From a virus (lineage: Duplodnaviria > Heunggongvirae > Uroviricota > Caudoviricetes): a stretch of 19,305 nt of DNA. Of the stretch, positions 1-18,908 are shown one piece after another. Each line of letters opens with the position of its first letter. Positions within the stretch are counted from its first letter, which is position 1. The DNA is taken from positions 1-19,305 of the IMG/VR virus record IMGVR_UViG_3300029828_000038; one strand, given 5' to 3'. The notes below the pieces were generated by a model. The model saw only the letters and a program-made list of their open reading frames with translations. It had not been told where the DNA came from and made no database searches. The position numbers and the translations under genes were made by a program.

Positions 1-827
1 CCGGAAGTCTCTACCTGTTCTGTGGTCATCGCCTGGCATCTGATATCGAAATCATGATGCGTCAGCGCTTTAATGTGCTGAACCACATTATCTGGGCGAA
101 GCCGTCCGGACGCTGGAACGGATGCAACAAGGAAAGCCTGCGGGCGTATTTTCCGGCAACAGAACGCATTCTGTTTGCTGAACATTATCAGGGTCCATAC
201 CAGCCCAAAAATGACGGCTATGCGGCAAAGGGGCGCGAGCTAAAACAGCACGTCATGGCCCCGCTGATTTCTTACTTTCGTGATGCGCGTGAATCACTGG
301 GAATAACGTCAAAACAGATAGCGGAAGCCACCGGAAAGAAAAACATGGCTTCGCACTGGTTTGGTACCAGTCAGTGGCAGTTACCAAACGAGGGTGATTA
401 CAACAAATTGCAGGCGTTGTTTGCGCGTGTTGCGGCAGAAAAACATCAGCGCGGGGAACTGGAAAAGCCACACCACCAGCTGGTCAGCACATACAGTGAA
501 CTGAACCGGCAATATGCCAGCCTGCTGGAAGAGTACAAATCCCTGCGGCGTTATTTTTCCGTATCGGCAGCCGTTCCTTATACGGATGTCTGGACGCATA
601 AACCCGTGCAGTTTTATCCGGGCAAACATCCCTGTGAAAAACCGGCGGATATGCTCCGGCAAATAATCAATGCCAGCAGTCGCCCTGGTGATTTGGTTGC
701 TGATTTTTTTATGGGGTCTGGCTCAACAATAAAAGCGGCACTTTCACTGGGACGCCGTGCGATTGGCGTGGAACTGGAGGAAGAGAGATTTAATCAGACT
801 GTAAGTGAAATAAAAAATAATCGTTAA
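1..827 (+). CDS. DNA methyltransferase, N6-adenine/N4-cytosine (PF01555-like) family; 5' end lies outside the window
   Basis: Reading frame is open from window position 3 with no stop, through the track ORF 54..827. The protein carries HPCEKP (HPTQKP-like) followed by DLVADFFMGSGST (FxGxG AdoMet motif) and GRRAIGVELEE, the characteristic C-terminal half of this family. The DPPY-type motif would be upstream of the window. Confidence 0.75.
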   Translation, partial: GSLYLFCGHRLASDIEIMMRQRFNVLNHIIWAKPSGRWNGCNKESLRAYFPATERILFAEHYQGPYQPKNDGYAAKGRELKQHVMAPLISYFRDARESLGITSKQIAEATGKKNMASHWFGTSQWQLPNEGDYNKLQALFARVAAEKHQRGELEKPHHQLVSTYSELNRQYASLLEEYKSLRRYFSVSAAVPYTDVWTHKPVQFYPGKHPCEKPADMLRQIINASSRPGDLVADFFMGSGSTIKAALSLGRRAIGVELEEERFNQTVSEIKNNR

Positions 828-1426
828 ATACGGATAACATTATTTCTGAAATTAAGAAATAATAGAAATATATACATATGTTTACGAATATTAACGTGAA
901 TTTCCATTGAAAAGAGAACAGGCATCATTAGTATTAATTTGAGTTCCGAGGGTATACCCCGAAGAACCAGTGCCGACTTAGTTCAGCAATCAGAGCAGGT
1001 GGCTTGTAACATCAGGTCACCAGTTCGATTTCTCAGTCGGTACCGTATGCGGGTCGATTCCCGCTGTTCCAGAAGTAACGAGATAGGTAGTTTTGGGCGC
1101 TGGCACATTAAATATGTGGGATGTTTCACCCTCTCTCCTTACCGCATCCAGCCTGTAATGAAAGTTATTTGTTACGGTACCAGTGCCATCTTTTTACAAT
1201 AGCGGAATGGTGCATTATTGGTAGATATTTTGTATTTCATGGCAGGGTCGGTGATGCATCATTCCGGTGTTGTAAATAACACCGCCGGGGTGTTCCTCAG
1301 TGCGGGGGTGGTTCAAGAGTCGGTTTAGCGGGAAGCCACAGTATCCATACAGTATGGAGTACTTCGGGAGGCACCCGACGCCCTGGTTTTACTACAATAA
1401 AAATAACTTATCTTCTGCATTGACCA

Positions 1427-1452
1427 GCCGCCCCCACCGGGCGGTTTTTTTA
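1427..1452 (+). terminator. Intrinsic terminator-like hairpin plus T-tract
   Basis: Stem CCGCCC (1428-1433) / GGGCGG (1439-1444) with loop CCACC, followed by T7 (1445-1451). No coding sequence overlaps it. Confidence 0.55.
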
Positions 1453-1536
1453 TTCTGAATTCCCCAAAAAAAGAAAACACGGACACTGATAATGCCCGTG
1501 TGGCAATGCCATGTAAGTCAGCGATGAATATGGCGC

Positions 1537-1570
1537 AAAAAAAAAGCGCGGCTGTCGGATTAAAGCCGCG
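1537..1570 (-). terminator. Intrinsic terminator-like hairpin plus U-tract on the minus strand
   Basis: A9 at 1537-1545 on the + strand (U9 following the hairpin on the minus strand). Stem CGCGGCT (1547-1553) / AGCCGCG (1564-1570) with a 10-nt loop. Convergent with the + strand terminator at 1427..1452. Confidence 0.4.
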
Positions 1571-1829
1571 GGACAAAGTCCGTGAAGAAGAATAAGCATC
1601 GGTCTCCTCCAGGAGACGAGTTGATATTACTAAGCTTTAAAAATGGTTTAAATCCCCGTATTAACCTTAATTTCAGATAAGCTTTATTTCATTTCTTCGC
1701 GCCACGCCCGGCGCATATCAAAAAGCCACAGAGCCTTTCAGGGGTGAGCTTACGGGATGGTCAGTGTGACTTTCTCTGTGGGCTGGTCACCCCGGGGCGC
1801 AGGCTCACCCACTAAAAGGAAAAGTCACG

Positions 1830-2255
1830 ATGTTTGGTATTTTCAAAAAGAAAACCCGCAAGGCCATTACTGAAGTAAAGAAAATGGAGAACCGCGACGC
1901 AGTGGAGGCGACCGTCTGGGGTGCGTATTCCATCGCATTCGCCGACGACACCTGTGACGCGAAAGAAGTCGCGGTACTGGAGAAAACCATTGCAGCACTT
2001 CCTGCCTTTGCGCCGTTCTCCGGTGAGATTGCACAAATGAGTGCAAATATCCGCGCCCGTTATGAAGCGTCGCCGCGCTCTGCCAATGCTGAAGCCCTTC
2101 GTCAGCTGGCTGACGTGGCAGGTACTGATGACGCAGTTAATGTGCTGTGCCTGTGTCTGGATATCGCTGACCAGGATGGCATTGGTCCGGATGAAGAAGC
2201 ACAACTCAAGAAAATTGCTCAGGCACTGCAGTTGCCGCTGGAGCAGTACCTGTGA
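1830..2255 (+). CDS. TerB-like (tellurite-resistance TerB family) protein, phage cargo gene
   Basis: ATG at 1830 preceded by AAAGGAAAAG. The 141-aa product has the TerB-type acidic motif DIADQDGIGPDEEAQLKKIAQAL and predicted helical character. It sits between terminator-like hairpins, upstream of the lysis genes. Confidence 0.7.
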   Translation: MFGIFKKKTRKAITEVKKMENRDAVEATVWGAYSIAFADDTCDAKEVAVLEKTIAALPAFAPFSGEIAQMSANIRARYEASPRSANAEALRQLADVAGTDDAVNVLCLCLDIADQDGIGPDEEAQLKKIAQALQLPLEQYL

Positions 2256-2404
2256 AAAGTGCGCGCCTTGTGCTGGCTGCCATCCTGCTGTTTCTGGTAG
2301 TGGTGGTGGATTTCACCGGACGGCTGATGTCGGTGCTGGCAGATGGTGTGCTGGTGGCGATGGCGCTGGCCGTACTCCGGCCTTTACTGCGCAAATCTGA
2401 ATAA
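2252..2404 (+). CDS. Small hydrophobic two-helix membrane peptide (50 aa), translationally coupled to the TerB-like gene; not in the ORF track
   Basis: GTG at 2252-2254 overlaps the TerB stop TGA 2253-2255 (GTGA), with GGAG at 2240-2243 upstream. Hand translation: (M/V)KSARLVLAAILLFLVVVVDFTGRLMSVLADGVLVAMALAVLRPLLRKSE, stop TAA 2402-2404. Codons are CTG/GTG-rich. It falls below the apparent 60-aa cutoff of the track. Confidence 0.4.
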   Translation: MKSARLVLAAILLFLVVVVDFTGRLMSVLADGVLVAMALAVLRPLLRKSE

Positions 2405-2455
2405 CACCACACAAAAGGCATCTGCGGGTGCCTTTGACGGGGTGTTGTTTTTTAC

Positions 2456-2477
2456 GGGCCGCTGGTGGCCCTTTTTT
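2456..2477 (+). terminator. Intrinsic terminator-like hairpin plus T-tract upstream of the lysis genes
   Basis: Stem GGGCC (2456-2460) / GGCCC (2467-2471) with loop GCTGGT, then T6 (2472-2477). A second hairpin AGGCA/TGCCT lies at 2416-2433. Confidence 0.5.
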
Positions 2478-2495
2478 ATTTACAGGAGAAAAAGT

Positions 2496-2888
2496 ATGTC
2501 TGAACCCTTATCCGGTTCCGGCACGGCTGCGGCGCTCGGCGGGGCGACGGTATTCGGGCTGTTTACCGGAACGGATTTCGGGATTGTGTTTGGTGCGTTC
2601 GCCGGGGCGTTGTTTGTGGCAACGATGCCGCAGAAGATTTCAGCCTGGCGTGTGGCGGCACATTTTCTGGTGTCGTTCATTGTTGGTGTACTGGGGGCGC
2701 GTGTACTGTCAGCCTGGATTGCATCAAAAACAGGTTATGACGGTACATCTGCGGATGCACTGTGTGCGGTGCTGGTGGCGGTGGTGTCGGTGAAGATTCT
2801 GTCGTTCATCCACCAGCAGGATATCGCATCACTGGTGTCCGGCCTGTTCTCGCGCCTGCGGGGTGGAGGAGGCGGCAATGTTAAGTAA
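2496..2888 (+). CDS. Putative holin / lysis membrane protein (three predicted TM segments)
   Basis: ATG at 2496 preceded by ACAGGAGAAAAAG; this is the in-frame internal start of track ORF 2343..2888. The 130-aa product has three hydrophobic segments and a charged Gly-rich C-terminus, and lies immediately upstream of the endolysin. Confidence 0.55.
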   Translation: MSEPLSGSGTAAALGGATVFGLFTGTDFGIVFGAFAGALFVATMPQKISAWRVAAHFLVSFIVGVLGARVLSAWIASKTGYDGTSADALCAVLVAVVSVKILSFIHQQDIASLVSGLFSRLRGGGGGNVK

Positions 2889-3153
2889 CCTTCCCGGATT
2901 GCTGAATGTGGCGTTATGCACGGTTATCGTGCTGACGCTCTTTTTTTATCGTCGCCGTGATTCCAGACATAAACCGCTGATGTCATGGCTGGCCTGGCTA
3001 CTGATGCTGCTTTATGCCTTTGCACCACTCAGCTATCTGTGCGGTCGCCCGTTAGCGGCGAACTGGCTGGCGGTGGGGCTTAATCTGCTGTTCTGCGTGC
3101 TGGTGATACGTGCACGCGGGAACGTCACAAAAATCTTTCCAATGTTGAGGTGA
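2878..3153 (+). CDS. Second lysis-cassette membrane protein (holin/antiholin-like, about three TM segments)
   Basis: ATG at 2878 preceded by GGAGGAGG, overlapping the upstream gene by 11 nt. The 91-aa product is hydrophobic with basic loops (FFYRRRDSRHK). Its stop TGA 3151-3153 is 2 nt before the endolysin start. Confidence 0.5.
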   Translation: MLSNLPGLLNVALCTVIVLTLFFYRRRDSRHKPLMSWLAWLLMLLYAFAPLSYLCGRPLAANWLAVGLNLLFCVLVIRARGNVTKIFPMLR

Positions 3154-3155
3154 AT

Positions 3156-3533
3156 ATGTCGGGTAAATTCAGATTCAGCCGTCGCAGTGAAAAAAATCTG
3201 GAGGGCGTCAAACCACAGCTGGTTGCTGTCGTTCGCCGTGCGCTGGAGCTGACGGAGGTTGATTTCGGTATTACGGAAGGCCTGCGCAGTAAGTATCGCC
3301 AGAAACAGCTGGTTGCGGCAGGGAAAAGCCAGACCATGAACAGCCGCCACCTGACAGGTGATGCGGTGGATGTTGTGGCCTACATTGGCAGCCAGGTGTC
3401 ATGGGACTGGCCTCTGTACGAGAAAATAGCGCAGGCATTTAAGCAGGCTGCCGCAGAGCTGGGAACTACCATCGAATGGGGCGGTGAGTGGCGGTCCTTA
3501 AAGGACGGGCCTCACTTTCAGTTGAAACGCTGA
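3156..3533 (+). CDS. Endolysin, L-alanyl-D-glutamate peptidase (peptidase M15 / VanY-like, phage T5 Lys-like)
   Basis: ATG at 3156 with GAGGTG upstream. The 125-aa product has the T5-Lys-like pattern: KFRFS..SEKNL..VKPQL..RRALEL, the zinc-ligand motif SRHLTGDAVD, and C-terminal EWGGEW...DGPHFQL. Confidence 0.85.
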   Translation: MSGKFRFSRRSEKNLEGVKPQLVAVVRRALELTEVDFGITEGLRSKYRQKQLVAAGKSQTMNSRHLTGDAVDVVAYIGSQVSWDWPLYEKIAQAFKQAAAELGTTIEWGGEWRSLKDGPHFQLKR

Positions 3534-3547
3534 TAACCAGGTGTGTT

Positions 3548-3730
3548 ATGAGCAGAAAACACTGGACACACAGAATGCCGCGAACGGCGGCGAAATGGGC
3601 ACTGGTAGCGATACTGGTGCCTTTTTTATTGGTGGGATGCGTCAGCCTGGATAAGGCGCGCCAGCTTTTCGATACGGCTTCTCAGGTCTGCGAAATTGTT
3701 GACGGTGTTCGGCAGTGTCTGCAGAACTGA
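3548..3730 (+). CDS. Small outer-membrane lipoprotein, lysis-associated (spanin-like position)
   Basis: ATG at 3548 with AGGTG upstream. Signal peptide with basic n-region, hydrophobic core and lipobox LVGC. The mature part is 30 aa (CVSLDKARQLFDTASQVCEIVDGVRQCLQN), with Val at +2 and three Cys. It starts 14 nt after the endolysin stop. Confidence 0.6.
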   Translation: MSRKHWTHRMPRTAAKWALVAILVPFLLVGCVSLDKARQLFDTASQVCEIVDGVRQCLQN

Positions 3731-3901
3731 TCGCCCGTAAGAGCAGAATATTTTGCTGAAAAATGAAGGATGCGTCAGCGCCCGGAAAGCATGAAATTCT
3801 GTGTTTGCGGTCATTCAATAAAATAAATTCTTTCTTTCGCCGCGAATACTCAAATGTTGATCAGCGCCAGGTGCGGCGACGGGCTTCGATATCAGGAGAC
3901 G

Positions 3902-4180
3902 ATGATGGGAAAAACAGAAAACAAACCGATTTTAGTTGGTGTCGCGTCTATTCCGTTTAAGTTTGAACTGTCACAACTGGTGGAAGTATGCATCAGTGAT
4001 GAATGGGGTGAGGTTAAAGCTCGCGCTCAGTATGCAGATGGCGAAAACCAGTACTTGCTCCACTACAAAGCTGCTGATGGTCGTGCCACGACGGAGTGGT
4101 TTGGTGAATCAATGCTGGAAGCAACAGAAGATGCTCGTCATCCGGGCTGTCCGGTATTTGCCTTCATGAAATTACCGTAA
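3902..4180 (+). CDS. Hypothetical protein (92 aa, soluble), candidate cargo gene
   Basis: ATG at 3902 preceded by TCAGGAGACG. No TM segment or recognisable motif. It is preceded by a 170-bp AT-rich spacer and followed by the palindrome GTTACTGAGTAAC (4190-4202) and the hairpin GCAGCCC/GGGCTGC (4213-4235). Confidence 0.5.
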   Translation: MMGKTENKPILVGVASIPFKFELSQLVEVCISDEWGEVKARAQYADGENQYLLHYKAADGRATTEWFGESMLEATEDARHPGCPVFAFMKLP

Positions 4181-4262
4181 GGTGCGGTAGTTACTGAGTA
4201 ACAGGCATTACAGCAGCCCTTCAGTGAGGGGCTGCGATAATGCCGGTATTAAGGAGATTCCA

Positions 4263-4613
4263 ATGCCATCACGAATCCCCCGCGCATGCCGTAAGCGAGG
4301 TTGCGCAGGCACGACAACAGACAGCTCTGGCTACTGCGATAAACATCGGGGTGAAGGCTGGGTGCAGCACCAGCGCGGACTGAGCCGCCACCAGCGTGGC
4401 TATGGCTCAAAATGGACGGTGATTCGAGCCCGTATTCTGAAGCGCGATAAAGGTCTGTGTCAGTTGTGTCTGCGTGTCGGTGTGGTGCGCGAGGCGAAAA
4501 CTGTCGACCACATCATCCCGAAAGCACATGGCGGAACAGATGCAGACAGCAACCTGCAGAGTCTGTGCTGGCCCTGCCACAAAGCGAAAACAGCGCGCGA
4601 ACGAATCAGGTGA
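4263..4613 (+). CDS. HNH endonuclease (packaging-associated, HK97 gp74-like position)
   Basis: ATG at 4263 with AAGGAG upstream. The product has Cys-rich zinc-finger-like CRKRGCAG...CDKH and the HNH core DHIIPKAHGG...N...CWPCHKAKT. It lies directly upstream of the terminase small subunit. Confidence 0.85.
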   Translation: MPSRIPRACRKRGCAGTTTDSSGYCDKHRGEGWVQHQRGLSRHQRGYGSKWTVIRARILKRDKGLCQLCLRVGVVREAKTVDHIIPKAHGGTDADSNLQSLCWPCHKAKTARERIR

Positions 4614-4760
4614 TAATTATTCTCACTTGTGGGGAGGGGCGGGTAAAATCCCTGCAGCCCTGGCTGCTCAGTACCGCCGCCTGACCTTTCCTCGCATCGC
4701 CGCAGGTTCGAAAACTTTTTTTTGGGAATGCGATCAAACGATTGATAGGTAAAACCGATT
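4614..4760. other. Candidate cos / packaging-initiation region between HNH endonuclease and terminase small subunit
   Basis: A 147-bp non-coding gap with G-rich GGGGAGGGGCGGG, the hairpin GCAGC-CCTG-GCTGC, the GC block CCGCCGCCTGACC and a T9 run. The position matches the cos site of HK97-like phages. The exact cut site cannot be determined. Confidence 0.3.
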
Positions 4761-5243
4761 ATGTCAGGACCCCCGAAAACCCCGCCACGCCTGCATTTGA
4801 TACGAGGCAACCCATCAAAGCGCCCCGTTAAAGACCCCAAAAAAACCGCTAAAAAGGACGAAAAAGGTCTCCCTAAAATTCCGCAACATTTAGGGGCGCA
4901 GGGGAAGTACTGGTTCAGGCGAATGGCGGAAGAACTGAATGCGGAAGGGATCATTTCTCAGCTTGATGCGCGTGCACTCGAGTTGCTGGTGGAAGCCTAC
5001 ACCGAATACCGGCATCACTGCGAAATACTCGATGTTGAGGGTTATACCTACCGCACGGAAACGCAGAACGGTGATGTGCTGATTAAGGCACACCCGGCTG
5101 CTGCGATGAAAGCGGATGCCTGGAAGCGGATCCGGGCGATGCTTGCAGAGTTTGGTATGTCACCGGCAAGCCGGGCGAAAGTAAATACCGCCGGACCGGA
5201 TGATGTTGATCCGCTGGCGGAACTTTTAAAAGCGAGAGACTGA
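4761..5243 (+). CDS. Terminase small subunit, P27 family
   Basis: 160-aa product with a basic N-terminus (PKTPPRLHLIRGNPSKRP...) and the P27-family core YWFRRMAEEL...LDARALELLVEAY...HPAAAMKADAWKRIRAMLAEFGMSPASRAK. Its stop overlaps the large-subunit start (TGATG). Confidence 0.85.
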   Translation: MSGPPKTPPRLHLIRGNPSKRPVKDPKKTAKKDEKGLPKIPQHLGAQGKYWFRRMAEELNAEGIISQLDARALELLVEAYTEYRHHCEILDVEGYTYRTETQNGDVLIKAHPAAAMKADAWKRIRAMLAEFGMSPASRAKVNTAGPDDVDPLAELLKARD

Positions 5244-7000
5244 TGGCAAAAGTGGCTGACGGGATCCGCTACGCCGAACGTGTTGTTGCAGGAGAAATTG
5301 TCGCTGGCGAATTTGTCCGTCTGGCCTGCCAGCGTTTTCTTGATGATCTGAAGTACGGCGAAGAGCGGGGGATTTATTTCAGTGAACCCCGTGCGCAGCA
5401 CATCCTGAATTTCTACAAATTTGTGCCCCATGTAAAAGGGGCGCTGGCAGGCCAGCCCATTGAACTGATGGACTGGCATGTATTTATTCTCATTAATATT
5501 TTTGGTTTTGTCATTCCGCTGGTCAATGAAGAGACCAGGGAAGTTGTTATGCGCAGCGATGGCAGCGGACGTCCGGTGATGGTGCGCCGGTTCCGGACGG
5601 CGTACAACGAAGTCGCCCGTAAAAACGCAAAATCAACCCTGTCATCGGGTATCGGTCTGTATATGACGGGGGCAGATGGTGAAGGCGGGGCTGAGGTGTA
5701 TTCAGCCGCAACCACGCGTGACCAGGCCAGAATCGTGTTTGAAGACGCCAAAAATATGGTCAGAAAAGCCCGGTCGACACTCGGGCGATTGTTTGATTTC
5801 AACAAGCTGGCGATTTACCAGGAGCAGAGCGCATCAAAATTTGAACCGCTTTCTTCGGATGCAAACAACCTGGATGGTCTGAACATCCACTGCGCCATTA
5901 TTGATGAGCTGCATGCACATAAAACCCGCGACGTGTGGGACGTTCTGGAAACGGCAACTGGTGCCCGTCTGCAGTCCCTGTTATTTGGTATCACCACGGC
6001 TGGCTTTAACAAGGAAGGGATTTGTTACGAGCAACGCGATTACGCCATCAAGGTATTGCGTGGCTATAACAGTGACGTGGAGGGCGCGGTAAAAGACGAC
6101 TCTTACTTTGCGATCATTTACACGCTCGATGAGGGAGATGATCCGTTTGATGAAACGGTCTGGCAGAAAGCGAATCCCGGCCTGGGCATCTGTAAACGCT
6201 GGGATGATTTGCGTCGTCTGGCGAAAAAAGCGAAGGAGCAGGTTTCTGCGCGGGTGAATTTTTTCACGAAACACATGAATGTGTGGGTCACTGCCGAATC
6301 TGCCTGGATGGACATGATTAAGTGGGAGAAGTGCGAATACATTGCTCCACAGCATGAGCTGAAAACATATCCCATGTGGGTCGGTGTAGACCTTGCTCAT
6401 AAGATTGATATCTGTGCGGCGGCAAAACTCTGGCGAACCGATAACGGACATGTTCATGCTGATTTTAAATTCTGGCTCCCGGAAGGACGGCTGGAGCGGT
6501 GCTCGCGGCAGCAGGCAGAACTTTACCGGAAATGGGCGGAGATGGATAAGCTCATCCTGACGGATGGTGATGTTATCGATCATGCTCAGATAAAAAGTGA
6601 CTTACTGGAATGGATTGGTGGTGAAAACCTGAGGGAGCTGGGATTTGACCCGTGGAGTGCAATGCAGTTCAGTCTGGCTCTGGCTGAAGAAGGGATACCG
6701 CTGGTGGAAGTTCCGCAGACGGTCCGCAATCTGTCAGAGGCTATGAAGGAAACGGAATCACTGGTCTATGCCGGGCGTTTTCACCACAGCAATCACCCGG
6801 TCATGAACTGGATGATGTCTAACGTTACGGTAAAACCGGACAAAAACGACAATATCTTCCCGAACAAATCCACGCCTGAAGCCAAAATCGACGGTCCTGT
6901 TGCGATGTTTACAGCAATGAGCCGGATGCTGGTCAATGGCGGTGAACCGGAGCCGGATCTGTCTGAGCATCTGGTCAGCGTTGGTATTCGCTCGCTTTAA
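5243..7000 (+). CDS. Terminase large subunit (Terminase_1-like)
   Basis: 585 aa, size and position typical. ATPase-like N-terminal region and nuclease-like C-terminal region by pattern. Coupled to the small subunit. Confidence 0.9.
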
Positions 7001-7011
7001 CCGAGGGCATT

Positions 7012-7194
7012 ATGTTTCTGATAATTCTCACGCCACTGGTGGGCGTGCTGGGGGCGCTTTTGCTGGCGTATGGCGCCTGGCTGATTTATCCCCCGGCAGG
7101 TTTTGTTGTTGCCGGGGCGCTGTGTCTGTGCTGGTCGTGGCTGGTTGCGCGTTATCTCGATCGCGGTCACCGGGTCGCCTCTGGAGGTGAGTAA
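7012..7194 (+). CDS. Small two-helix membrane protein (60 aa) between terminase and portal
   Basis: ATG at 7012, 11 nt after the terL stop, with GAGGG upstream. Product [60 protein letters not shown] has two hydrophobic helices and a charged tail. Its stop TAA overlaps the portal ATG (TAATG). Confidence 0.5.
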
Positions 7195-8435
7195 TGTTTT
7201 TCCAGGGGCTTTTTCAACGCAAAAATAACACCCCCGTCACAACGCCCGGGATGCTTGCGGAAGAGCTGGGGTTGTCATACGACACCTATACCGGAAAGCG
7301 GATCAGCAGCCAGCGGGCCATGCGGCTGACGGCGGTCTATTCCTGCGTCAGGGTGCTGGCTGAGTCTGTTGGTATGCTGCCCTGCAGTCTCTACAAAATC
7401 AGCGGCACCCTTAAAACACGGGCGGTGGATGAACGGCTGCATAAGCTGATTTCGGCAAAACCCAATGGCTACATGACGCCGCAGGAATTCTGGGAACTGG
7501 TTATCGTCTGCCTGTGTCTGCGGGGTAATTTTTACGCCTACAAGGTAAAGGCACTGGGGGAAGTGGTGGAGCTTCTTCCGATAGATCCGGGCTGTGTGGA
7601 ACCGAAGCTGAACAGCCAGTGGCAGCCGGTTTATCAGGTGACGTTTCCGGATGGTTCCGTGGATGTGCTGACCCAGAATGAAATCTGGCATGTGCGTACC
7701 CTGACGCTGGATGGACTTGTCGGTCTGAATCCCATTGCATATGCGCGCGAGGCCATTTCACTGGCAGCGGCAACCGAGGAGCATGGTGCCAGATTGTTTG
7801 GCAATGGCGCGGTAACATCCGGTGTGTTGCGTACGGATCAACAACTTTCTGACCAGGCTTATGCGCGTATCAAAAAGGATTTTGAGGAACGGCATGTCGG
7901 GCTGGGAAACTCTCATCGTCCGATGATTCTGGAAATGGGGCTGGACTGGAAAACGGTGGCACTGAATGCCGAGGACAGCCAGTTCCTGGAAACCCGCAAG
8001 TTTCAGCTGGAAGAAATCTGTCGCCTGTTCCGCGTGCCGCTGCATATGGTGCAGAACACCGATCGCGCCACCTTCAACAATATTGAAGAGCTGGGGCTTG
8101 GTTTCATTAACTATTCCCTTGTGCCGTATCTGACCCGTATTGAGCAGCGGATCAATACAGGGCTGGTCAGGGAGAGCAAGCAGGGAAAATTTTACGCCAA
8201 GTTTAATGCCGGAGCATTGTTGCGTGGCGACATGAAATCCCGCTTTGAAGCGTATGCCACGGGGATCAACTGGGGGATTTATTCCCCTAATGACTGCCGT
8301 GATCTGGAAGATATGAATCCCCGACCGGGCGGTGATGTGTATCTGACACCGATGAACATGACCACCAGTCCCTCTGCTGGCGATGACAACGGTAAGAAAA
8401 AGGAGAGTGGAGATGCAGACAAAACAGCGTCTTGA
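7194..8435 (+). CDS. Portal protein, HK97 family
   Basis: 413 aa, immediately downstream of terminase and upstream of the prohead protease. Sequence pattern typical of Phage_portal family. Confidence 0.9.
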   Translation: MFFQGLFQRKNNTPVTTPGMLAEELGLSYDTYTGKRISSQRAMRLTAVYSCVRVLAESVGMLPCSLYKISGTLKTRAVDERLHKLISAKPNGYMTPQEFWELVIVCLCLRGNFYAYKVKALGEVVELLPIDPGCVEPKLNSQWQPVYQVTFPDGSVDVLTQNEIWHVRTLTLDGLVGLNPIAYAREAISLAAATEEHGARLFGNGAVTSGVLRTDQQLSDQAYARIKKDFEERHVGLGNSHRPMILEMGLDWKTVALNAEDSQFLETRKFQLEEICRLFRVPLHMVQNTDRATFNNIEELGLGFINYSLVPYLTRIEQRINTGLVRESKQGKFYAKFNAGALLRGDMKSRFEAYATGINWGIYSPNDCRDLEDMNPRPGGDVYLTPMNMTTSPSAGDDNGKKKESGDADKTAS

Positions 8436-9063
8436 TATACCGCTGAACCTGAAATCCGTCAGTGATTCCGGGGAATTTGAAGGTTACGGTTCTGTTTTTG
8501 GTGTTAAGGACAGCCACGATGATGTGGTGGTCCCCGGAGCCTTTACCACAACACTCCAGAAATGGAGCGAAAAAAAGGCGCTGCCTGCGTTGCTCTGGCA
8601 GCACCGCATGGATGAGCCCATCGGTGTGTACACCGAAATGAAAGAAGATGATGTCGGGCTTTATGTCAGGGGACGATTACTCATTGATGATGATCCCCTG
8701 GCAAAACGTGCACATGCCCATATGAAGGCCGGTTCTTTAACCGGCCTTTCTATTGGCTACATCCTGAAAGACTGGGAGTACGACCGGGAAAAAGGGGTAT
8801 TCCTGCTGAAAGAGATCGACCTGTGGGAGGTCAGTCTGGTGACGTTTCCTTCCAATGATGAAGCACGCATCAGCGATGTGAAAAATGCGCTGGCGCGTGG
8901 GGAGATCCCTGATCAGAAAATTATTGAGCGGGTCCTGCGCGATGTTGGACTCTCGCGAACCCAGGCCAAAGCATTCATGGCCGGGGGATATGGCGCTTTA
9001 TCCCTGCGTGATGCTGAGGATGTGGATGCCGCACTGAATGCACTGAAAAATCTTAAATTTTAA
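8413..9063 (+). CDS. Prohead protease, HK97 family (peptidase S78/U35)
   Basis: ATG at 8413 with AAGGAGAGTGGAG upstream. Chosen over the track start 8383, which has no RBS. Conserved region GYGSVFGVKDSHDDVVVPGAF and position between portal and capsid. Confidence 0.85.
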   Translation: MQTKQRLDIPLNLKSVSDSGEFEGYGSVFGVKDSHDDVVVPGAFTTTLQKWSEKKALPALLWQHRMDEPIGVYTEMKEDDVGLYVRGRLLIDDDPLAKRAHAHMKAGSLTGLSIGYILKDWEYDREKGVFLLKEIDLWEVSLVTFPSNDEARISDVKNALARGEIPDQKIIERVLRDVGLSRTQAKAFMAGGYGALSLRDAEDVDAALNALKNLKF

Positions 9064-9076
9064 TCAGGAGTAAATA

Positions 9077-10303
9077 ATGGCTGTTGATATTAAAGACGTT
9101 GAACAGGTCGCGCAGGATTTGCAGCAGAAGTTTGACGATTTTAAGGCAAAAAACGACAAGCGCATTGACGCGATCGAACAGGAAAAAGGCAAGCTGGCCG
9201 AACAGGTGGAAAGCCTGAACGGGCAAATCAGCGAGCTGGAGAACCTGAAAAGCGACCTGGAAAAAGAGCTGGCAGACATCAAGCGTCCGGCAGGCGGCAC
9301 GCAAAATAAAGTTGCCGGTGAACACAAAGAAGCGTTTATCGGATTTATGCGCAAGGGGCGTGAAGACGGTCTGCGTGAACTTGAACGTAAGGCGCTTCAG
9401 GTAGGTAATGATGAAGATGGTGGTTATGCCATTCCGGAAGAACTGGATCGTACCATCCTGACGCTACTGAAAGATGAGGTGGTGATGCGCCAGGAAGCCA
9501 CTGTGATCACCCTCGGTGGCTCGGATTATAAAAAACTGGTGAATCTGGGCGGCACAACGTCCGGATGGGTGGGGGAAACGGATGCTCGTCCGGAAACCGC
9601 CACCTCAAAACTGGGTCTGATTGAACCCTTTATGGGGGAAATCTACGGCAACCCGCAGGCCACCCAGAAAATGCTCGATGATGCTTTCTTCAATGTGGAA
9701 GACTGGATCAACAGTGAGCTGGCGCTGGAATTTGCCGAGCAGGAAGAAATTGCCTTTACCAGTGGCGACGGCAGCAAAAAACCAAAAGGTTTTCTGGCTT
9801 ACGAGTCCACCGATGAAGATGACAAGACCCGTGCGTTTGGCAAACTTCAGCACATTGCTTCCGGTGCGGCTTCCGGCGTGACTGCCGATGCGATCATTAA
9901 ACTGATTTACACCCTGCGCAAGGCGCACCGCAGCGGCGCGAAGTTTATGATGAACAACAGCAGCCTGTTTGCCATTCGTCTGCTGAAGGATAACGACGGA
10001 AATTATCTGTGGCGTCCGGGTATTGAGCTGGGTCAGCCTTCTTCTCTGGCAGGGTATGGCATCGTTGAGAATGAACAGATGCCGGATATTGCTGCCGATG
10101 CAAAAGCCATTGCGTTTGGTAACTTCAAACGTGGCTATACCATCGTTGATCGCATCGGTACCCGTATCCTGCGCGATCCGTACACCAATAAACCGTTTGT
10201 GGGTTTTTACACCACCAAGCGAACCGGCGGTATGCTGGTGGATTCTCAGGCGATTAAGCTGATGAAAATTGGGGCCGCAACCCGCCAGAAAGCCGCTGCG
10301 TAA
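9077..10303 (+). CDS. Major capsid protein, HK97 family, with N-terminal coiled-coil delta (scaffold) domain
   Basis: ATG at 9077 with AGGAG upstream. 408 aa. The N-terminal ~100 aa is a coiled-coil (KFDDFKAKNDKRIDAIEQEKGKLAEQVESLNGQISELENLKSDLEKELADIK), followed by a capsid-fold region. Confidence 0.9.
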   Translation: MAVDIKDVEQVAQDLQQKFDDFKAKNDKRIDAIEQEKGKLAEQVESLNGQISELENLKSDLEKELADIKRPAGGTQNKVAGEHKEAFIGFMRKGREDGLRELERKALQVGNDEDGGYAIPEELDRTILTLLKDEVVMRQEATVITLGGSDYKKLVNLGGTTSGWVGETDARPETATSKLGLIEPFMGEIYGNPQATQKMLDDAFFNVEDWINSELALEFAEQEEIAFTSGDGSKKPKGFLAYESTDEDDKTRAFGKLQHIASGAASGVTADAIIKLIYTLRKAHRSGAKFMMNNSSLFAIRLLKDNDGNYLWRPGIELGQPSSLAGYGIVENEQMPDIAADAKAIAFGNFKRGYTIVDRIGTRILRDPYTNKPFVGFYTTKRTGGMLVDSQAIKLMKIGAATRQKAAA

Positions 10304-10336
10304 TGCGGTTTTTTATGCCCGCACAGTGTTGCGGGC
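10293..10336 (+). terminator. Structured intercistronic element after the major capsid gene (weak terminator-like hairpin plus a second strong hairpin)
   Basis: CCGC (10293-10296) / GCGG (10305-10308) followed by T6 (10309-10314), then the perfect hairpin GCCCGCA (10317-10323) / TGCGGGC (10330-10336) directly before the RBS of the next gene. Confidence 0.3.
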
Positions 10337-10347
10337 AGGAGTTTCTG

Positions 10348-10665
10348 ATGGCAGCAATAGTGGAAAAACTCAGGGCGCAGTGCCGTATTGATACAGATGA
10401 TGCAACTGATGATGAGTTACTGATGCTGTATTTCCGGGCTGCCTGCCGCAAGGCAGAAAATTTTATCAACCGTAAGCTTTATGAGGAGACGGTGCCGGAA
10501 GGTGATCCTGACGGGGTGCTTATAGCTGATGATGTTTTGCTGGCGCTCATGTTGCTGGTCGGACACTGGTACGAAAACCGGGAAAATTCCTCAGATGTCA
10601 GCAAGGCACCAGTTCCGTTTGGTTTTTCTTCTCTGCTGGAGCCTTATCGTTTTATTCCTTTGTAG
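10348..10665 (+). CDS. Head-tail adaptor / connector protein (gp6-like, Phage_connect_1)
   Basis: ATG at 10348 with GGGCAGGAG upstream. Chosen over the track start 10303, which would read through the hairpins. Motif MAAIVEKLRAQCRIDTDDATDDELL typical of this family. Confidence 0.8.
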   Translation: MAAIVEKLRAQCRIDTDDATDDELLMLYFRAACRKAENFINRKLYEETVPEGDPDGVLIADDVLLALMLLVGHWYENRENSSDVSKAPVPFGFSSLLEPYRFIPL

Positions 10666-10673
10666 GAGGAACC

Positions 10674-11012
10674 ATGCAGGCGGGCAGATTACGTGATCGC
10701 GTAACTATTCTGAATGTCACCACCGTCCGTTCTCCGTCAGGGCATCCGGTGGAGACAATGACGGAGGGGGCAACCGTATGGGCAGAAGTTAAGGGGATCA
10801 GCGGGAGGGAGAGAATATCAGGAGGTGCAGAAACCGCTCAGGCTACGGTCAGAGTCTGGATGCGATTTCGGCGCGATGTGACAGCGACTTCACGTCTGAA
10901 AGTGCTGACCGGTGCATTTAAAGGGGTCACTCTTGGTATAGAAGGGCCACCAATACCGGATGCACGCGCCACCCGGCTTGAAATGCTCTGCAGTCTGAAG
11001 GGGAATGTGTGA
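10674..11012 (+). CDS. Head closure protein (Phage_H_T_join, SPP1 gp16-like)
   Basis: ATG at 10674 with GGAGGA upstream. 112 aa with pattern RDRVTI...VWAEVKGISGRE. Position after the adaptor. Confidence 0.8.
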   Translation: MQAGRLRDRVTILNVTTVRSPSGHPVETMTEGATVWAEVKGISGRERISGGAETAQATVRVWMRFRRDVTATSRLKVLTGAFKGVTLGIEGPPIPDARATRLEMLCSLKGNV

Positions 11013-11458
11013 TGGATTTCAGTCTTGATTTTTCAGGTCTGGCGGATATTGCACGGGATCTGGAGACGCTCAGCAGGGCAGAAAACAATAAGGTTCTGCG
11101 CGATGCCACCCGTGCCGGTGCTGAAGTTATGCGGGATGCAGTTGTTGAACGTGCGCCGGAGCGAACCGGGAAACTGAAGAAAAATGTGGTTGTTCTCACG
11201 CAGCGTTCAAAGCGTCGGGGGGAAATTATCTCGGGTGTCCACATTCGCGGACGGAACCTGCGAACCGGAAACAGTGATAACAGCATGAAAGCCAGCGATC
11301 CCCGAAATGCGTTTTACTGGCGCTTTGTGGAGCTGGGAACGATAAACATGCCCGCGCATCCGTTCATTCGCCCGGCTTTCGATACGACAGAGGAACTGGC
11401 AGCACAGATTGCCATACAGCGAATGAATCAGGCTATTGATGAGGTCTTAAGTAAATGA
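11012..11458 (+). CDS. HK97 gp10-family protein (neck / tail-completion)
   Basis: ATG at 11012 overlapping the upstream stop (TGATG); the track begins 3 nt earlier at GTG 11009. Motif VVERAPERTGKLKKN and ...HPFIRPAF typical of the family. Confidence 0.8.
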   Translation: MDFSLDFSGLADIARDLETLSRAENNKVLRDATRAGAEVMRDAVVERAPERTGKLKKNVVVLTQRSKRRGEIISGVHIRGRNLRTGNSDNSMKASDPRNAFYWRFVELGTINMPAHPFIRPAFDTTEELAAQIAIQRMNQAIDEVLSK

Positions 11459-11799
11459 GGGAAGCCACACTGTATTCCCTGCTGTCTCAACTGGCCGGAG
11501 GACAGGTTTATCCTTATGTGGTCCCGCTGACGGAGGGAAAGCCTGCGGTATCTCCGCCGTGGCTGGTGTTTTCTGTGGTGTCTGACACGGCGTCTGATGT
11601 GCTTGATGGTCAGGCTGAATCCAGAATTACCGTGCAGATCGATGTCTGGGCAACAGTACCTGATGACGCAGATGATATCCGTGAGCAGGCGCTTGATGCG
11701 GTAAGGCAACTTGCACCCTCCGTTATTTCTAAAACTCAGGGTTATGATCCTGATTCCCGTCTGAGCAGAGCCACGCTTGAATTTCAGGTAATAGCCTGA
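11455..11799 (+). CDS. Tail terminator-like protein (DUF3168-like, lambda gpU position)
   Basis: ATG at 11455 overlapping the upstream stop (ATGA). 114 aa. Position directly upstream of the major tail protein. Confidence 0.7.
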   Translation: MREATLYSLLSQLAGGQVYPYVVPLTEGKPAVSPPWLVFSVVSDTASDVLDGQAESRITVQIDVWATVPDDADDIREQALDAVRQLAPSVISKTQGYDPDSRLSRATLEFQVIA

Positions 11800-11820
11800 G
11801 GTCGTTAATGATTTTACCCA

Positions 11821-11846
11821 CCCGCCGCTGGCGGGTTTTTTATTTT
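11821..11846 (+). terminator. Terminator-like hairpin plus T-tract between tail terminator and major tail genes
   Basis: Stem CCCGCC / GGCGGG with loop GCT (11821-11835), followed by TTTTTTATTTT. Immediately upstream of the RBS CAGGAGACG of the major tail gene. Confidence 0.45.
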
Positions 11847-11858
11847 CAGGAGACGAGT

Positions 11859-12563
11859 ATGTCCTCTAATTTTGAGCGTTCGCAACTGACGAAAATTATG
11901 ATTTCGTCTGCACCGGTAACAGCAGAAACCCTGGATTCTGCCAGCTATCTTGGCCTGAGCTGTACAATCAAAGAGGTGCAGTTTACCGCAGGACAAAAGC
12001 AGGATATTGATGTCACCACGCTGTGTTCTGTTGAGCAGGAAAATATTAACGGCCTTGGTGCCGCGTCAGAGATTTCCATGTCAGGCAACTTTTACCTCAA
12101 TGCTGCCCAGAACGCGTTGCGCAGTGCCTATGACAATGACACCACGTATGGCTTTAAAGTTATTTTTCCGTCAGGCAACGGATTTACCTTTATGGCAGAG
12201 GTGCGTCAGCATACCTGGTCTGCAGGAACTAATGGTGTTGTGGCTGCAACGTTTTCCCTGCGCCTGAAAGGTAAACCTGTGCTGACGACAGAGCCGCTGA
12301 AAGTGAAGGTCGATTTAAACAGCACGCTGCAGGTTTCTGCCGGAGCGAAACTCGAAATGGTGGTTGAGGCTGCCGGTGGTGTGCCGCCTTATTCTTATGT
12401 CTGGAAGAAAGGTAGTTCTCCTGTTTCCGGACAGACGGCGGCAACATTCAGTAAGGCATCAGCAGCATCAGGTGATGCCGGTGCGTATACCTGCGAGATT
12501 TCTGATTCAGCAAGCCCTGTTAACAAGGTGACCTCCACTTCCTGCACTGTTACCGTCAGTTAA
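11859..12563 (+). CDS. Major tail (tube) protein with C-terminal Ig-like (Big_2-type) domain
   Basis: ATG at 11859 with AGGAGACGAG upstream; the track start 11808 would read through the hairpin. The C-terminal ~90 aa has the Ig-like signature (...PPYSYVWKKG...AGAYTCEISDSAS...TVTVS). Confidence 0.85.
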   Translation: MSSNFERSQLTKIMISSAPVTAETLDSASYLGLSCTIKEVQFTAGQKQDIDVTTLCSVEQENINGLGAASEISMSGNFYLNAAQNALRSAYDNDTTYGFKVIFPSGNGFTFMAEVRQHTWSAGTNGVVAATFSLRLKGKPVLTTEPLKVKVDLNSTLQVSAGAKLEMVVEAAGGVPPYSYVWKKGSSPVSGQTAATFSKASAASGDAGAYTCEISDSASPVNKVTSTSCTVTVS

Positions 12564-12577
12564 TGAGGATAGATGTG

Positions 12578-12949
12578 ATGACTAAAAATATCCGCAATCT
12601 GGCACTGGCAACGATGTCGGGGTTTCGCCATAAAACTGTTGATGTGCCTGAATGGGAAGGGGCAACGGTTGTATTACGGGAACCTTCTGCAGAAGCCTGG
12701 TTGCGCTGGCAGGAGATCGTTAAAGCAAAAGATGATGAGACACCGTTATCCGTTGCGGAGCGCGCCCGCCGAAATCTGGAGGCAGATGTTGAACTGTTCA
12801 TTGATGTTCTGTGTGATACCGGACTGCAACCTGTATTTTCAGAGGATGATCGTGAACAGGTGATTGCCGTGTATGGCCCGGTGCATGCGCGGCTTCTTCG
12901 GCAGTCTCTGGAACTGATCAGTGATGCCGGCGAGGTTAAAAAAAAGTAG
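12578..12949 (+). CDS. Tail assembly chaperone (lambda gpG equivalent)
   Basis: ATG at 12578 with GAGGATAGATGTG upstream; the alternative start is ATG 12563, coupled as TAATG. The ORF ends ...GEVKKK then TAG 12947-12949, immediately after the slippery heptamer. Confidence 0.75.
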   Translation: MTKNIRNLALATMSGFRHKTVDVPEWEGATVVLREPSAEAWLRWQEIVKAKDDETPLSVAERARRNLEADVELFIDVLCDTGLQPVFSEDDREQVIAVYGPVHARLLRQSLELISDAGEVKKK

Positions 12950-13251
12950 AGCTTCCGGGGATGCGTTTTCTGATGATGCTGGCGCTCAGGATGGGGCGCA
13001 CATTGTCAGAGTTACGCCGGGAAATGTCCGCATCAGAAATCATGATGTGGGCAGAATTTGACAGGTACAGCCCGCTGGGTGACGAGCGGGCTGATATCCG
13101 GGCTGCCCAGATAGTTTCTGCGGTTTACGGTGCGCAGGGTGTCAAAGTCCCACTGAATGATGCGCTTCTTCAGTGGGAACAAGAGCAGACAGAAGGCGTC
13201 TCAGATCCATTTGCCGGACTGGAAAACGCGCTTTTAATAGTGTCTCAGTGA
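12578..13251 (+). CDS. Tail assembly chaperone frameshift fusion product (lambda gpGT equivalent), made by a -1 shift at 12940-12946
   Basis: Frame relationship verified by hand: G is in frame 2 and the downstream ORF (track 12961..13251) is in frame 1. The fusion would read ...GEVKKK-VELPGMRFLMML... to the stop at 13249-13251. Position between major tail and tape measure matches the conserved G/GT arrangement. Confidence 0.6.
12940..12946 (+). other. Slippery heptamer A AAA AAG for -1 programmed ribosomal frameshift (G to GT)
   Basis: In the G frame the codons are AAA (12941) AAG (12944) TAG (12947). The -1 frame has a stop at 12937-12939 and is open from 12940 (AAA AAA GTA GAG CTT CCG GGG ATG...) into the downstream ORF ending 13251. 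Confidence 0.65.
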
Positions 13252-13260
13252 GTCAACATA

Positions 13261-13280
13261 ACCGCTTCGGCGGTTTTTTT
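13261..13280 (+). terminator. Terminator-like hairpin (UUCG tetraloop) plus T-tract upstream of the tape measure gene
   Basis: ACCGC-TTCG-GCGGT (13261-13274) followed by T7, then the RBS GGAGA and ATG 13291. Confidence 0.45.
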
Positions 13281-13290
13281 CGTCCGGAGA

Positions 13291-16200: not shown

Positions 16201-16524
16201 AGTGCTTACAGTAACACTATTGTGGATACACCGACGTATTTTGCTTTTGCGAAAGGTGCCGGGCTGATGGGTGAGGCCGGGCCTGAAGCTATCATGCCAC
16301 TGACACGGGCAGCGGACGGCTCTCTTGGGGTCAGAGCCATTGGCAATGTGAATGGTGGCGGTGGATTTGTTTATTCTCCCGTGTATCACATCAGCATTCA
16401 GAATCAAGGGAGCAATGGCGAGATAGATACGCGCTCAGCCAGGGGACTGGTGGATCTGATCGACAGCAGGGTTGTGTCAATTATGCAGTCATCGCGTCGG
16501 GATGGAGGATTATACAGTGCCTGA
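13291..16524 (+). CDS. Tail tape measure protein (1077 aa)
   Basis: Very long Ala/Gln-rich helical protein downstream of the G/GT chaperone. C-terminal region resembles lambda gpH (…WADSATDYASQ…, …RRDGGLYSA). Confidence 0.9.
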   Translation: MSVATLRELIIKISANSRSFQSEISRASRMGQDYYRTMQNGGRQSAAASREMRRALAEVTDQINTAKSSALNMAGAFAGAFATGHLISLADEWNSVNARLKQASQSSDDFQVSQRELMAISQRTGTAFSDNASLFARSAASMREYGYSSEEVLKVTEAISTGLKLSGASTAEASSVITQFSQALAQGVLRGEEFNSVNENGDRVIRALAAGMGVARKDLKAMADNGKLTADKVVPALISQLGALRDEYAAMPDTVSSSATKVENAFMAWVGGANEASGVTKTLTGVLNGVADNIDTVAAAAGALVAVGVARYFGNMASSAGSATAGLITAARNEVALAEAQLRGTQIATARARAAVYRAQQAVVAARGTERQAAAEAKLTAAQASLTRNIAARTAAQTTLNTVTSVGSRLLSGALGLVGGVPGLVMLGATAWYTMYQNQEQARESARQYAATIDEIRQKTSAMSLPEASDNEEKTRQALDEQNRLIDEQKSKIKSLQEKIAGYQYVLANPGWTTDNGFMINHMTSVKTVTEGLAEATNQLAVEQSRLTQMQGKAQSIQDVLAGLEERRVALIRQQAAEQNKAYQSLLIMNGQHTEFNRLLGLGNELLQQRQGLVNVPLRLPQATLDDKQQTALNNSERELALSRLKGEARERARLGYAADDLGFVGEAYQTARQNYINNSLDAWRNNQANKPKAHKKTEAEKTEDIYKRLIKQQKEQIALAGQNTELAKMKYQVSQGELSTLSEAQKKTLLQNAALIDQKKIREQLAAYESSLADSNASARASDDAQLLGYGEGSRMRERLQEMWSIRQTFEQKNNELLRQYQAGEIEEALWKQEKELNKKYLEERLSDQQDYYAKADALRNNWNAGLQEGLTNWADSATDYASQAADAVVSTMDGLVSNISDALAGNVVEWRNWGSSVLREVSKILMNAAIVNGLKSLSGAGGWLGTVGGWISGAVANAKGGVYTSANLSAYSNTIVDTPTYFAFAKGAGLMGEAGPEAIMPLTRAADGSLGVRAIGNVNGGGGFVYSPVYHISIQNQGSNGEIDTRSARGLVDLIDSRVVSIMQSSRRDGGLYSA

Positions 16525-17556: not shown

Positions 17557-17560
17557 TCCC

Positions 17561-18849: not shown

Positions 18850-18869
18850 TGAAAAACGTTTTATGTGAA

Positions 18870-18888: not shown

Positions 18889-18908
18889 GTCGTTATGGAG
18901 CGTGAGAA

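Follow-up and report, generated by a model that had tools for sequence, protein, structure and literature searches.

About 13–15% of the phages of Gram-negative hosts have no recognizable spanin (PMC6139136; bioRxiv 10.1101/515445), and the opening of the outer membrane in such phages has largely one explained case, the disruptin of phiKT. Rz/Rz1 is present in 277 of 279 Shiga toxin (Stx) phages, the two without it forming the Stx2e phiP27-like cluster (Pinto et al., PMC8136144). phiP27 itself has been listed with a "sep" two-component spanin, made of an inner-membrane subunit (i-spanin) of 64 amino acids (aa) at 20348-20542 and an outer-membrane subunit (o-spanin) of 51 aa at 20706-20861; both subunits are tabulated as singletons, and a periplasmic length of 62 residues makes the pair the shortest in that survey (Kongari et al. 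2018; PMC6139136). We analyzed the gene that corresponds to this o-spanin in a 19,305-nucleotide (nt) stretch of viral DNA (IMG/VR record IMGVR_UViG_3300029828_000038, positions 1 to 19,305; hereafter the window), which is a phiP27-like prophage ~92% identical to the Stx2e phage phiP27 over this stretch. The gene (3548..3730, + strand) encodes a small predicted lipoprotein and is the last of a lysis cassette. Its phiP27 copy had been catalogued once before, bioinformatically, as half of a two-component spanin; the present analysis adds that the published partner is not genuine, that members of the family stand alone as a conserved last gene of lysis cassettes, and that the signal peptide originates from LysC-type o-spanins. 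We propose, with a probability of roughly 0.45, that the product is a lysis lipoprotein of o-spanin descent, which acts on the outer membrane and has no dedicated partner.

The open reading frame (ORF) has an ATG start and 60 codons followed by a stop, and the protein reads MSRKHWTHRMPRTAAKWALVAILVPFLLVG before and CVSLDKARQLFDTASQVCEIVDGVRQCLQN after the predicted cleavage point. Its position downstream of the endolysin, as given in the initial annotation, is confirmed, the ATG lying 14 nt past the TGA (3531-3533) of an M15 endolysin. The protein matches phrog_7528, a family of unknown function, from end to end (E = 3.7e-38, residues 1-60 on profile positions 1-60 of 60), and a Lelliottia homolog matches the same family (E = 3.6e-16). 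Homologs fall into ~160 clusters at 90% identity, with source names in Escherichia, Salmonella, Citrobacter, Cronobacter and Yersinia, and Lelliottia comes from a genome scan. For 52 distinct alleles, the ratio of nonsynonymous to synonymous polymorphism (pN/pS) was 0.21 in the lipoprotein frame and 0.94 and 2.0 in the other two frames, and it was equal in the signal part (0.21) and the mature part (0.21). The three Cys and the lipobox are invariant even though members diverge to ~35-60% identity. The ORF is a real gene under purifying selection. Codons 2-9 vary synonymously with their amino acids fixed, and many homologs have T, I or V in place of Met10; the protein therefore starts at Met1 and not at Met10, from which the o-spanin of Kongari et al., the phiP27 ortholog of this lipoprotein, was counted. 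In the RefSeq/GenBank entry of phiP27 the lipoprotein is unannotated, and L32 (20630-20785) occupies another frame of the same DNA (our locus L001, 4570-4801, equal to NC_003356 20630-20861).

An exhaustive profile search with hidden Markov models over 1.84 billion representative proteins returned 24 clusters, all of the lipoprotein's own small family and all retaining the lipobox Cys and a C-x8-C pair, and no bridge from this family to any larger one was found in that search. No match was obtained in Pfam, NCBIfam, PADLOC or the sequences of PDB. Homology reaches the full length of phrog_7528 and, as shown below, the signal peptide of LysC-type o-spanins, with no family matched by the mature C-x8-C helix.

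The precursor has the sequence features of a signal peptidase II substrate, namely a basic n-region, an h-region (ALVAILVPFLL) and a lipobox of the form [LVI][ASTVI][GAS]C, and it is the sole lipobox ORF in the 19.3-kb window. The LVGC lipobox with Val at +2, on which the initial annotation rested, is present in the sequence (L28-V29-G30-C31, codons at 3629-3640), and G30 and C31 are invariant across the family alignment. Cys31 (codon 3638-3640) is predicted to be lipidated and to begin the mature protein. The +2 residue, Val in the window, is V, A, T, S, G or E in homologs and never D. Lipidation, cleavage by LspA between LVG and C, and sorting to the outer membrane are predicted from these sequence rules. 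The n-region, MSRKHWTHRMPRTAAKW, contains five K/R and is unusually long, with 17 residues in the motif M-x-R-K-H-W-T-H-R-x-P-R-T-A-A-K-W, and it is conserved (pN/pS = 0.18, pS = 0.27). The motif H-W-[ST]-H-R-x-P-R...K-W is common to the lipoprotein and the LysC-type o-spanins (L095 692-750). In LysC genes this stretch overlaps the i-spanin frame, whereas in the lipoprotein gene, where no gene overlaps it, it is still constrained, which suggests that the long basic n-region has its own function; the precursor or the signal peptide may itself have a role.

Weak tblastn matches of lipoprotein residues 2-33 to SfII, SfV and Klebsiella phages fall in the Rz1 frame. The N-terminus of SfV Rz1, MQNSRSHWSHREPRKISKW...LLTGC, corresponds to MSRKHWTHRMPRTAAKW...LLVGC in the window, and the two proteins are matched by BLASTP (E = 2e-8). 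SfV Rz1 is a member of PF23793, the family "Rz1-like lysis system protein LysC" (E = 1.7e-17), and comparison of the lipoprotein family profile with that of LysC-type o-spanins gave an hhalign probability of 96.8% (E = 2.3e-10, columns 2-35). The homology is restricted to the signal peptide. We conclude that the gene descends, at least in part, from a LysC-type o-spanin gene without being a member of PF23793.

The lipoprotein occupies the slot of Rz/Rz1. GER2, a lambdoid Stx phage, has immediately ahead of Rz/Rz1 an ORF of 37 aa whose transmembrane segment is C-terminal (phrog_4493), and in L004, L046 and many other loci the phrog_4493 ORF directly precedes the lipoprotein instead; DNA homology between GER2 and L004/L046 stops exactly at the shared TGATATG junction, at the ATG. 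The Rz/Rz1 genes of SfV are followed directly by an HNH-cos module with 76% DNA identity to the module of the window. We rejected a placement of the lipoprotein directly after the lambdoid R gene, suggested by "...VGGDM" homolog extensions, which are instead the end of the small transmembrane ORF preceding Rz or the lipoprotein.

We gathered ~95 related lipoprotein loci (L numbers) from at least seven enterobacterial genera; a scan of species-representative genomes gave 3 lipoprotein loci, and genomic context was taken from an IMG/VR scan and single-protein look-ups. The lipoprotein gene is the last of the cassette at every locus with enough upstream sequence, in the order holin(s), endolysin, optional small insert, lipoprotein. 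The distance between endolysin and lipoprotein, tallied at 86 loci with an intact copy, is at most 20 nt in 38 and is taken up by an insert of 0.1-1.2 kb in 43, upstream sequence being insufficient in 5; the inserts are small transmembrane ORFs, a 93-aa ORF, an HNH gene or a Bro-N gene. The lipoprotein start overlaps the endolysin stop in L074, L089 and L090, the gap is 0-10 nt in L096-L099, and the lipoprotein is often translationally coupled to the endolysin. Minimal cassettes (the window, L074, L008, L089, L090, L096 and L099) contain holin(s), endolysin and lipoprotein only, and 326 of 5426 complete E. coli genomes carry the lipoprotein cassette. Deleting a 130-aa holin of the same family as the first holin of the window abolished fluoroquinolone-induced (SOS) release of Stx2e (PMC12571312), which is indirect support for induced expression of the cassette.

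The lipoprotein keeps its position while its neighbors vary. Its holins are either Phage_holin_8 with Phage_holin_3_7 or Phage_holin_3_1 of the lambda-S family, its endolysins are either M15 peptidases or muramidases with GH108 and PG_binding_3, and the modules downstream may be HNH/terS/terL, Terminase_2, Terminase_6N with Mu_F, DUF1441/GpA, or toxin morons. The lipoprotein gene travels with the lysis module and not with head or tail genes, which argues against receptor masking or other cargo. Both lysis options of the initial annotation, an atypical spanin and a disulfide-stabilized lysis modulator, are favored by this linkage and by the LysC-type signal peptide; its third option, an unrelated cargo lipoprotein, is disfavored by the same signal peptide and by a linkage that holds across genera, holins, endolysins and packaging modules.

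The cargo option has a specific form that we regard as unlikely, though deserving of attention, in which the product is an accessory lipoprotein unneeded for lysis. Small phage outer-membrane lipoproteins with roles in superinfection exclusion, receptor masking (T5 Llp, phi80/N15 Cor) or host fitness (lambda Bor) are known, and lambda bor adjoins Rz. The gap between endolysin and packaging genes is, moreover, an insertion hot spot for toxins, Bro-N, HNH and small ORFs, and Rac-SA53 and SerU-LTIIb have LT-II toxin genes there without the lipoprotein. However, the lipoprotein covaries with the lysis module in carriers whose tail and receptor-binding modules differ widely, and it shares the strand of the endolysin, which in many cases it adjoins or overlaps, with no promoter-like site ahead. 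Its signal peptide is of o-spanin origin, it matches neither PADLOC nor the Bor, Llp or Cor families of Pfam, and its 30-aa mature part is half the size of Llp.

The published i-spanin of phiP27 is a TTG-start ORF inside a ~470-bp segment that is missing from the window. Of 88 loci, phiP27 alone (L001/L084) has it; it falls in no PHROG family, and the strand opposite encodes a 90-aa protein of phrog_36812 (E = 5e-20) with a 46%-identical homolog in L043. We reject this i-spanin, which is unconserved, is antisense to a conserved 90-aa gene and is best read as an antisense shadow ORF. The phiP27 records do not annotate the minus-strand 90-aa ORF, which is situated between endolysin and lipoprotein, and their L31 overlaps the 3′ end of the endolysin. 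A tblastn search with SfV Rz and lambda-type Rz found no Rz homolog in the ~95 loci or in the complete phiP27 genome. On the same strand of 90 loci, from -3 kb to +1.5 kb, we found no second lipobox ORF, nor any type II membrane protein that was credible as an i-spanin by having a charged domain in the periplasm.

Strictly, a spanin must have either an inner-membrane partner or a C-terminal transmembrane domain, and the lipoprotein shows neither. By sequence it is a predicted outer-membrane lipoprotein of a lysis cassette, as an o-spanin should be; no cognate i-spanin gene, embedded, overlapping or adjacent, is present in the window or in the whole phiP27 genome, its 30-aa mature part falls short of a periplasm-bridging length, and it has no C-terminal transmembrane domain of the unimolecular type. 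The initial suggestion of an atypical spanin comes near the mark in signal-peptide homology and lysis slot, but the partner or transmembrane domain is absent.

It is improbable that the lipoprotein serves as the o-spanin of a canonical, separated two-component spanin, with the 64-aa ORF of Kongari et al. or an unrecognized membrane protein, such as one of the holin-like proteins or the small transmembrane ORFs of relatives, as its partner. The "sep" entry for phiP27 and the conserved periplasmic Cys typical of spanins (PMC6139136) would fit such a pair, as would a signal peptide homologous to those of LysC o-spanins and the presence, in many relatives, of small transmembrane ORFs immediately ahead of the lipoprotein (phrog_4493/1115, phrog_4906). 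Yet the 64-aa ORF is confined to phiP27, absent from the window and antisense to the phrog_36812 ORF, and the combined 62 periplasmic residues, mostly helical, are too short for the periplasm. The minimal cassettes leave only holin(s) and endolysin beside the lipoprotein, the type of holin differs between cassettes so that no holin is a fixed partner, and in GER2 the small transmembrane ORF stands ahead of a complete Rz/Rz1.

The mature part was initially described as 30 aa long, proline-free and with two further Cys, and this is confirmed: 29 residues follow the lipidated Cys, among them the invariant Cys48 (3689-3691) and Cys57 (3716-3718), which form the C-x8-C motif. The accompanying claim that it is unlike proline-rich Rz1-type o-spanins also holds, the mature part being proline-free and outside PF23793. 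No hydrophobic segment follows Cys31 in the window lipoprotein, and the net charge of the mature part is -1 in the window and -2 to +3 over the family. The peptide is moderately amphipathic (hydrophobic moment 0.5-0.6), with a heptad-like seam at A7, L10, A14, V17, V21, V24 and L28 (mature numbering). AlphaFold2 with the family alignment predicts one long helix over residues 12-59 at low confidence (predicted local distance difference test, pLDDT, 66), and the phiP27 o-spanin is 83% helix in the table of Kongari et al. (PMC6139136). Cys48 and Cys57 are nine apart and would lie on opposite faces of a continuous helix, which favors intermolecular over intramolecular disulfides.

We suggest that the lipoprotein is the outer-membrane-acting member of a three-part cassette of holin(s), endolysin and lipoprotein in phiP27-like and related lambdoid prophages. 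It would be transcribed late from a Q-dependent operon with holin and endolysin, with frequent translational coupling to the endolysin, and would then be exported by Sec, lipidated and cleaved by LspA. Since the +2 residue is Val/Ala/Thr and never Asp, Lol would place it in the inner leaflet of the outer membrane. There the amphipathic, heptad-patterned helix may oligomerize, with the invariant Cys pair forming intermolecular disulfides, and, after holin and endolysin have removed the peptidoglycan, the accumulated lipoprotein alone would weaken or rupture the outer membrane. Such "solo o-spanin" action would be nearer to that of a colicin-release lipoprotein or the phiKT disruptin than to that of a periplasm-spanning fusion machine. 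It is possible, if rather doubtful, that this amounts to a third route, served by a single gene, by which tailed phages breach the outer membrane, effected either by a disulfide-linked, coiled-coil-like 30-residue lipopeptide that is anchored in the outer membrane and has no partner or by uncleaved precursor partnering the mature form. In the latter variant the uncleaved precursor, with its long basic signal anchor, would be the inner-membrane partner, and one gene would give both ends of a minimal bridge.

Several points weigh against this proposal. We know of no precedent for an o-spanin working alone. Lambda spanin mutants still lyse when no divalent cations are added, so that the cassette could persist without any outer-membrane factor, and lipoprotein morons such as lambda bor adjoin lysis genes. 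The mature peptide is not cationic and is chemically unlike disruptin. The protein matches neither colicin lysis proteins (no Pfam match to the Lysis_col profile PF02402 at E of 0.1 or below) nor PF23793, a profile that runs from lipobox to C-terminus and found no match at E up to 10 in the window protein and four divergent homologs. In the mature part, the best alignment sets CVSLDKARQLFDTASQVC.. against GASLDLNVSLLSALGQC.. of the LysC C-terminal domain, in the register CVSLDKARQLF / GASLDLNVSLL picked by hhalign; the similarity is suggestive but not significant (P ~0.05-0.07), and we do not claim homology from it, although at face value it would fit deletion of the proline-rich linker. The confidence of the AlphaFold2 model is low, and a 30-aa helix of ~4.5 nm is too short to reach the inner membrane. 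Finally, decay of the lipoprotein gene where Rz/Rz1 is present speaks for the proposal but is a single case: in GER2 (MG710528; L003 ~2990-3170) an intact Rz/Rz1 and a gene on the minus strand that resembles lipopolysaccharide phosphatases are followed by a lipoprotein pseudogene, which has a frameshift as well as two CAG-to-TAG stops.

The signal-peptide coding region also contains an intrinsic-terminator-like hairpin, GGGCACUGGUA-GCGA-UACUGGUGCCU followed by U6, which forms on the sense strand only and includes three G-U pairs (free energy -17.9 kcal/mol, z = -4.1). Its nucleotides are near-invariant, including in the copies from Lelliottia, Yersinia and Cronobacter; a re-drawn hairpin occupies the corresponding position of the lipoprotein gene in L096, and pS is lowest over the hairpin (0.13 vs 0.23-0.27 elsewhere). 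Pairing is kept in 95% of cells, which is no better than in shuffles, covariation likewise does not exceed that of shuffles, and no equivalent hairpin was found in SfV Rz1. Such a hairpin could limit expression, as might be expected if the product modulated the timing or efficiency of lysis, through, for example, disturbed lipoprotein processing or Lol traffic or the binding of an envelope component, and did not itself break the outer membrane. The 17-residue basic n-region, conserved at least as well as the mature part without an overlapping gene, hints in the same direction, namely that the precursor or the released signal peptide matters. We nevertheless give a modulator little chance: there is no similarity to known antiholins or lysis regulators, and the association with three unrelated holin families and two endolysin families makes a specific regulatory target among them unlikely.

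A functionless relic left after loss of the i-spanin, which a LysC-type signal peptide, the missing proline-rich linker and partner, and the decayed GER2 copy might suggest, is very improbable given a pN/pS of 0.21 in both halves of the gene, Cys and lipobox residues that are invariant at ~35-60% identity, and intact copies in cassettes of Escherichia, Salmonella, Citrobacter, Cronobacter, Yersinia and Lelliottia.

An o-spanin-derived lipoprotein acting on the outer membrane by itself is thus the reading that we prefer. The cassette drives Stx2e release, and in relatives it adjoins LT-II and pertussis-like toxin genes. Should the outer-membrane effector be this lipoprotein, it would be a minimal and easily testable lysis factor; the published two-component assignment would be corrected, and a possible handle on toxin release in the prophages of porcine Shiga toxin-producing E. 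coli would be gained. In either version of the solo mechanism, a two-component spanin would prove reducible to one small lipoprotein. If, on the other hand, the lipoprotein is unneeded for lysis, the cassette would be a clean example of spanin-free lysis in E. coli.

The features of the lipoprotein gene and its cassette are collected in Table 1.

Table 1. Features of the lipoprotein gene and neighboring lysis genes in the window, with the evidence for each
Feature	Coordinates	Strand	Evidence or remark
First holin, Phage_holin_8, 130 aa	2496..2888	+	Profile searches
Second holin-like protein, Phage_holin_3_7	2878..3153	+	Profile searches
M15 endolysin (L-alanyl-D-glutamate peptidase type)	3156..3533	+	Peptidase_M15_4 PF13539; phrog_465, E = 8.6e-73
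Shine-Dalgarno-like AGGTG	3539..3543	+	4 nt before the ATG, 5 nt past the endolysin stop codon
Prolipoprotein gene, last of the lysis cassette	3548..3730	+	ORF listing, phrog_7528, pN/pS, homologs
Basic n-region, unusually long, conserved	3548..3598	+	Alignment, pN/pS, BLASTP, hhalign
Intrinsic-terminator-like hairpin inside the signal-peptide coding region	3597..3628	+	11-bp stem, GCGA loop, then U6
h-region and lipobox L-V-G-C	3599..3640	+	Sequence; columns invariant in the family alignment
Mature 30-aa peptide, predicted amphipathic helix	3638..3727	+	Alignment, divergent homologs, hydrophobic moment, low-confidence AlphaFold2 model
92-aa conserved ORF, phrog_1935, function unknown	3902..4180	+	Between lipoprotein and HNH endonuclease

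The phrog_1935 ORF, which is followed in the window by the HNH endonuclease and then the terminase genes, is shared by many relatives, though not by all, and lacks both a transmembrane segment and a Pfam match. Small ORFs lie between endolysin and lipoprotein in L002 (2826-2999), L003 (1669-1782), L004 (933-1046), L046 (6826-6999) and L056 (6662-6996). The insert ORFs are of two types, one of 37/57 aa together with 60 aa, with a C-terminal transmembrane segment (phrog_4493/phrog_1115), and one of 44 aa with a transmembrane segment (phrog_4906); they may be uncharacterized accessory lysis genes. Enterotoxin genes directly follow the endolysin in the LT-II prophages SerU-LTIIb (L093 4300-4577) and Rac-SA53 (L094 4708-4798), where the lipoprotein is missing, and in a Yersinia kristensenii prophage (L089 7988-9140) the lipoprotein is retained with LT-II-like genes 1.8 kb beyond it; toxin morons use the same insertion hot spot, the endolysin-packaging gap. 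Upstream of the cassette, a TerB-like gene (1830-2255, + strand; phrog_632, "tellurite resistance") overlaps a 50-aa membrane ORF (2252-2404, + strand; phrog_1470, "TciB-like"). The two lie between the methyltransferase and the holin, where phiP27 has tRNAs and stx2e, and look like a moron pair; a strong terminator-like hairpin (2456-2471) follows them just upstream of the holin start. From the methyltransferase to the TerB-like gene (828-1829, ~1 kb) the window has no convincing ORF, tRNA or Rfam match, and the matching interval of phiP27 holds two tRNA genes and stx2e.

Among known systems, the colicin lysis or bacteriocin release lipoproteins (PF02402) are very small, with a mature part of ~28-33 aa, and permeabilize the envelope without an inner-membrane partner; the signal peptide of the pCloDF13 bacteriocin release protein is stable and functionally important. 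The window lipoprotein resembles them in its small size, comparable mature length and lack of an inner-membrane partner, but they are not helical Cys-containing peptides and are found on colicin plasmids, not in phage cassettes. It would share with the phiKT gp28 disruptin and the T1 gp11 unimolecular spanin (u-spanin) an outer-membrane step carried by a single gene in the absence of a two-component spanin (bioRxiv 10.1101/515445; PMC6139136), although gp28 is cationic and not a lipoprotein, whereas the window protein has a lipobox and a mature charge of -1, and gp11 combines a C-terminal transmembrane domain with a periplasmic domain that is long and beta-rich, neither of which is present here.

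Like lambda Rz1, it is a small predicted outer-membrane lipoprotein with a periplasmic Cys, a precursor of 60 aa and a slot after the endolysin; Rz1, however, is proline-rich, unstructured and embedded in Rz (PMC6139136), whereas the window lipoprotein is proline-free, predicted to be helical and stand-alone. The phiP27 entry (PMC6139136) concerns the same gene family and differs in listing an unconserved i-spanin and in the start, which is truly Met1. Compared with the LysC-type o-spanins of SfV and P2 (PF23793), the lipoprotein has a mature part of 30 aa instead of ~70, no proline-rich linker, two Cys (C-x8-C) instead of one, and a gene that overlaps no LysB/Rz gene and has no i-spanin nearby; it lies outside PF23793. 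It nevertheless shares with them a predicted outer-membrane location, the last place in the lysis cassette and a signal peptide with the motif S-R-x-H-W-[ST]-H-R-x-P-R-x(3)-K-W, an h-region and L-x-G-C (RSHWSHREPR...KW...LxGC being typical of the family), as well as conserved Cys in a C-terminal helical segment, and with SfV in particular the same HNH-cos module downstream.

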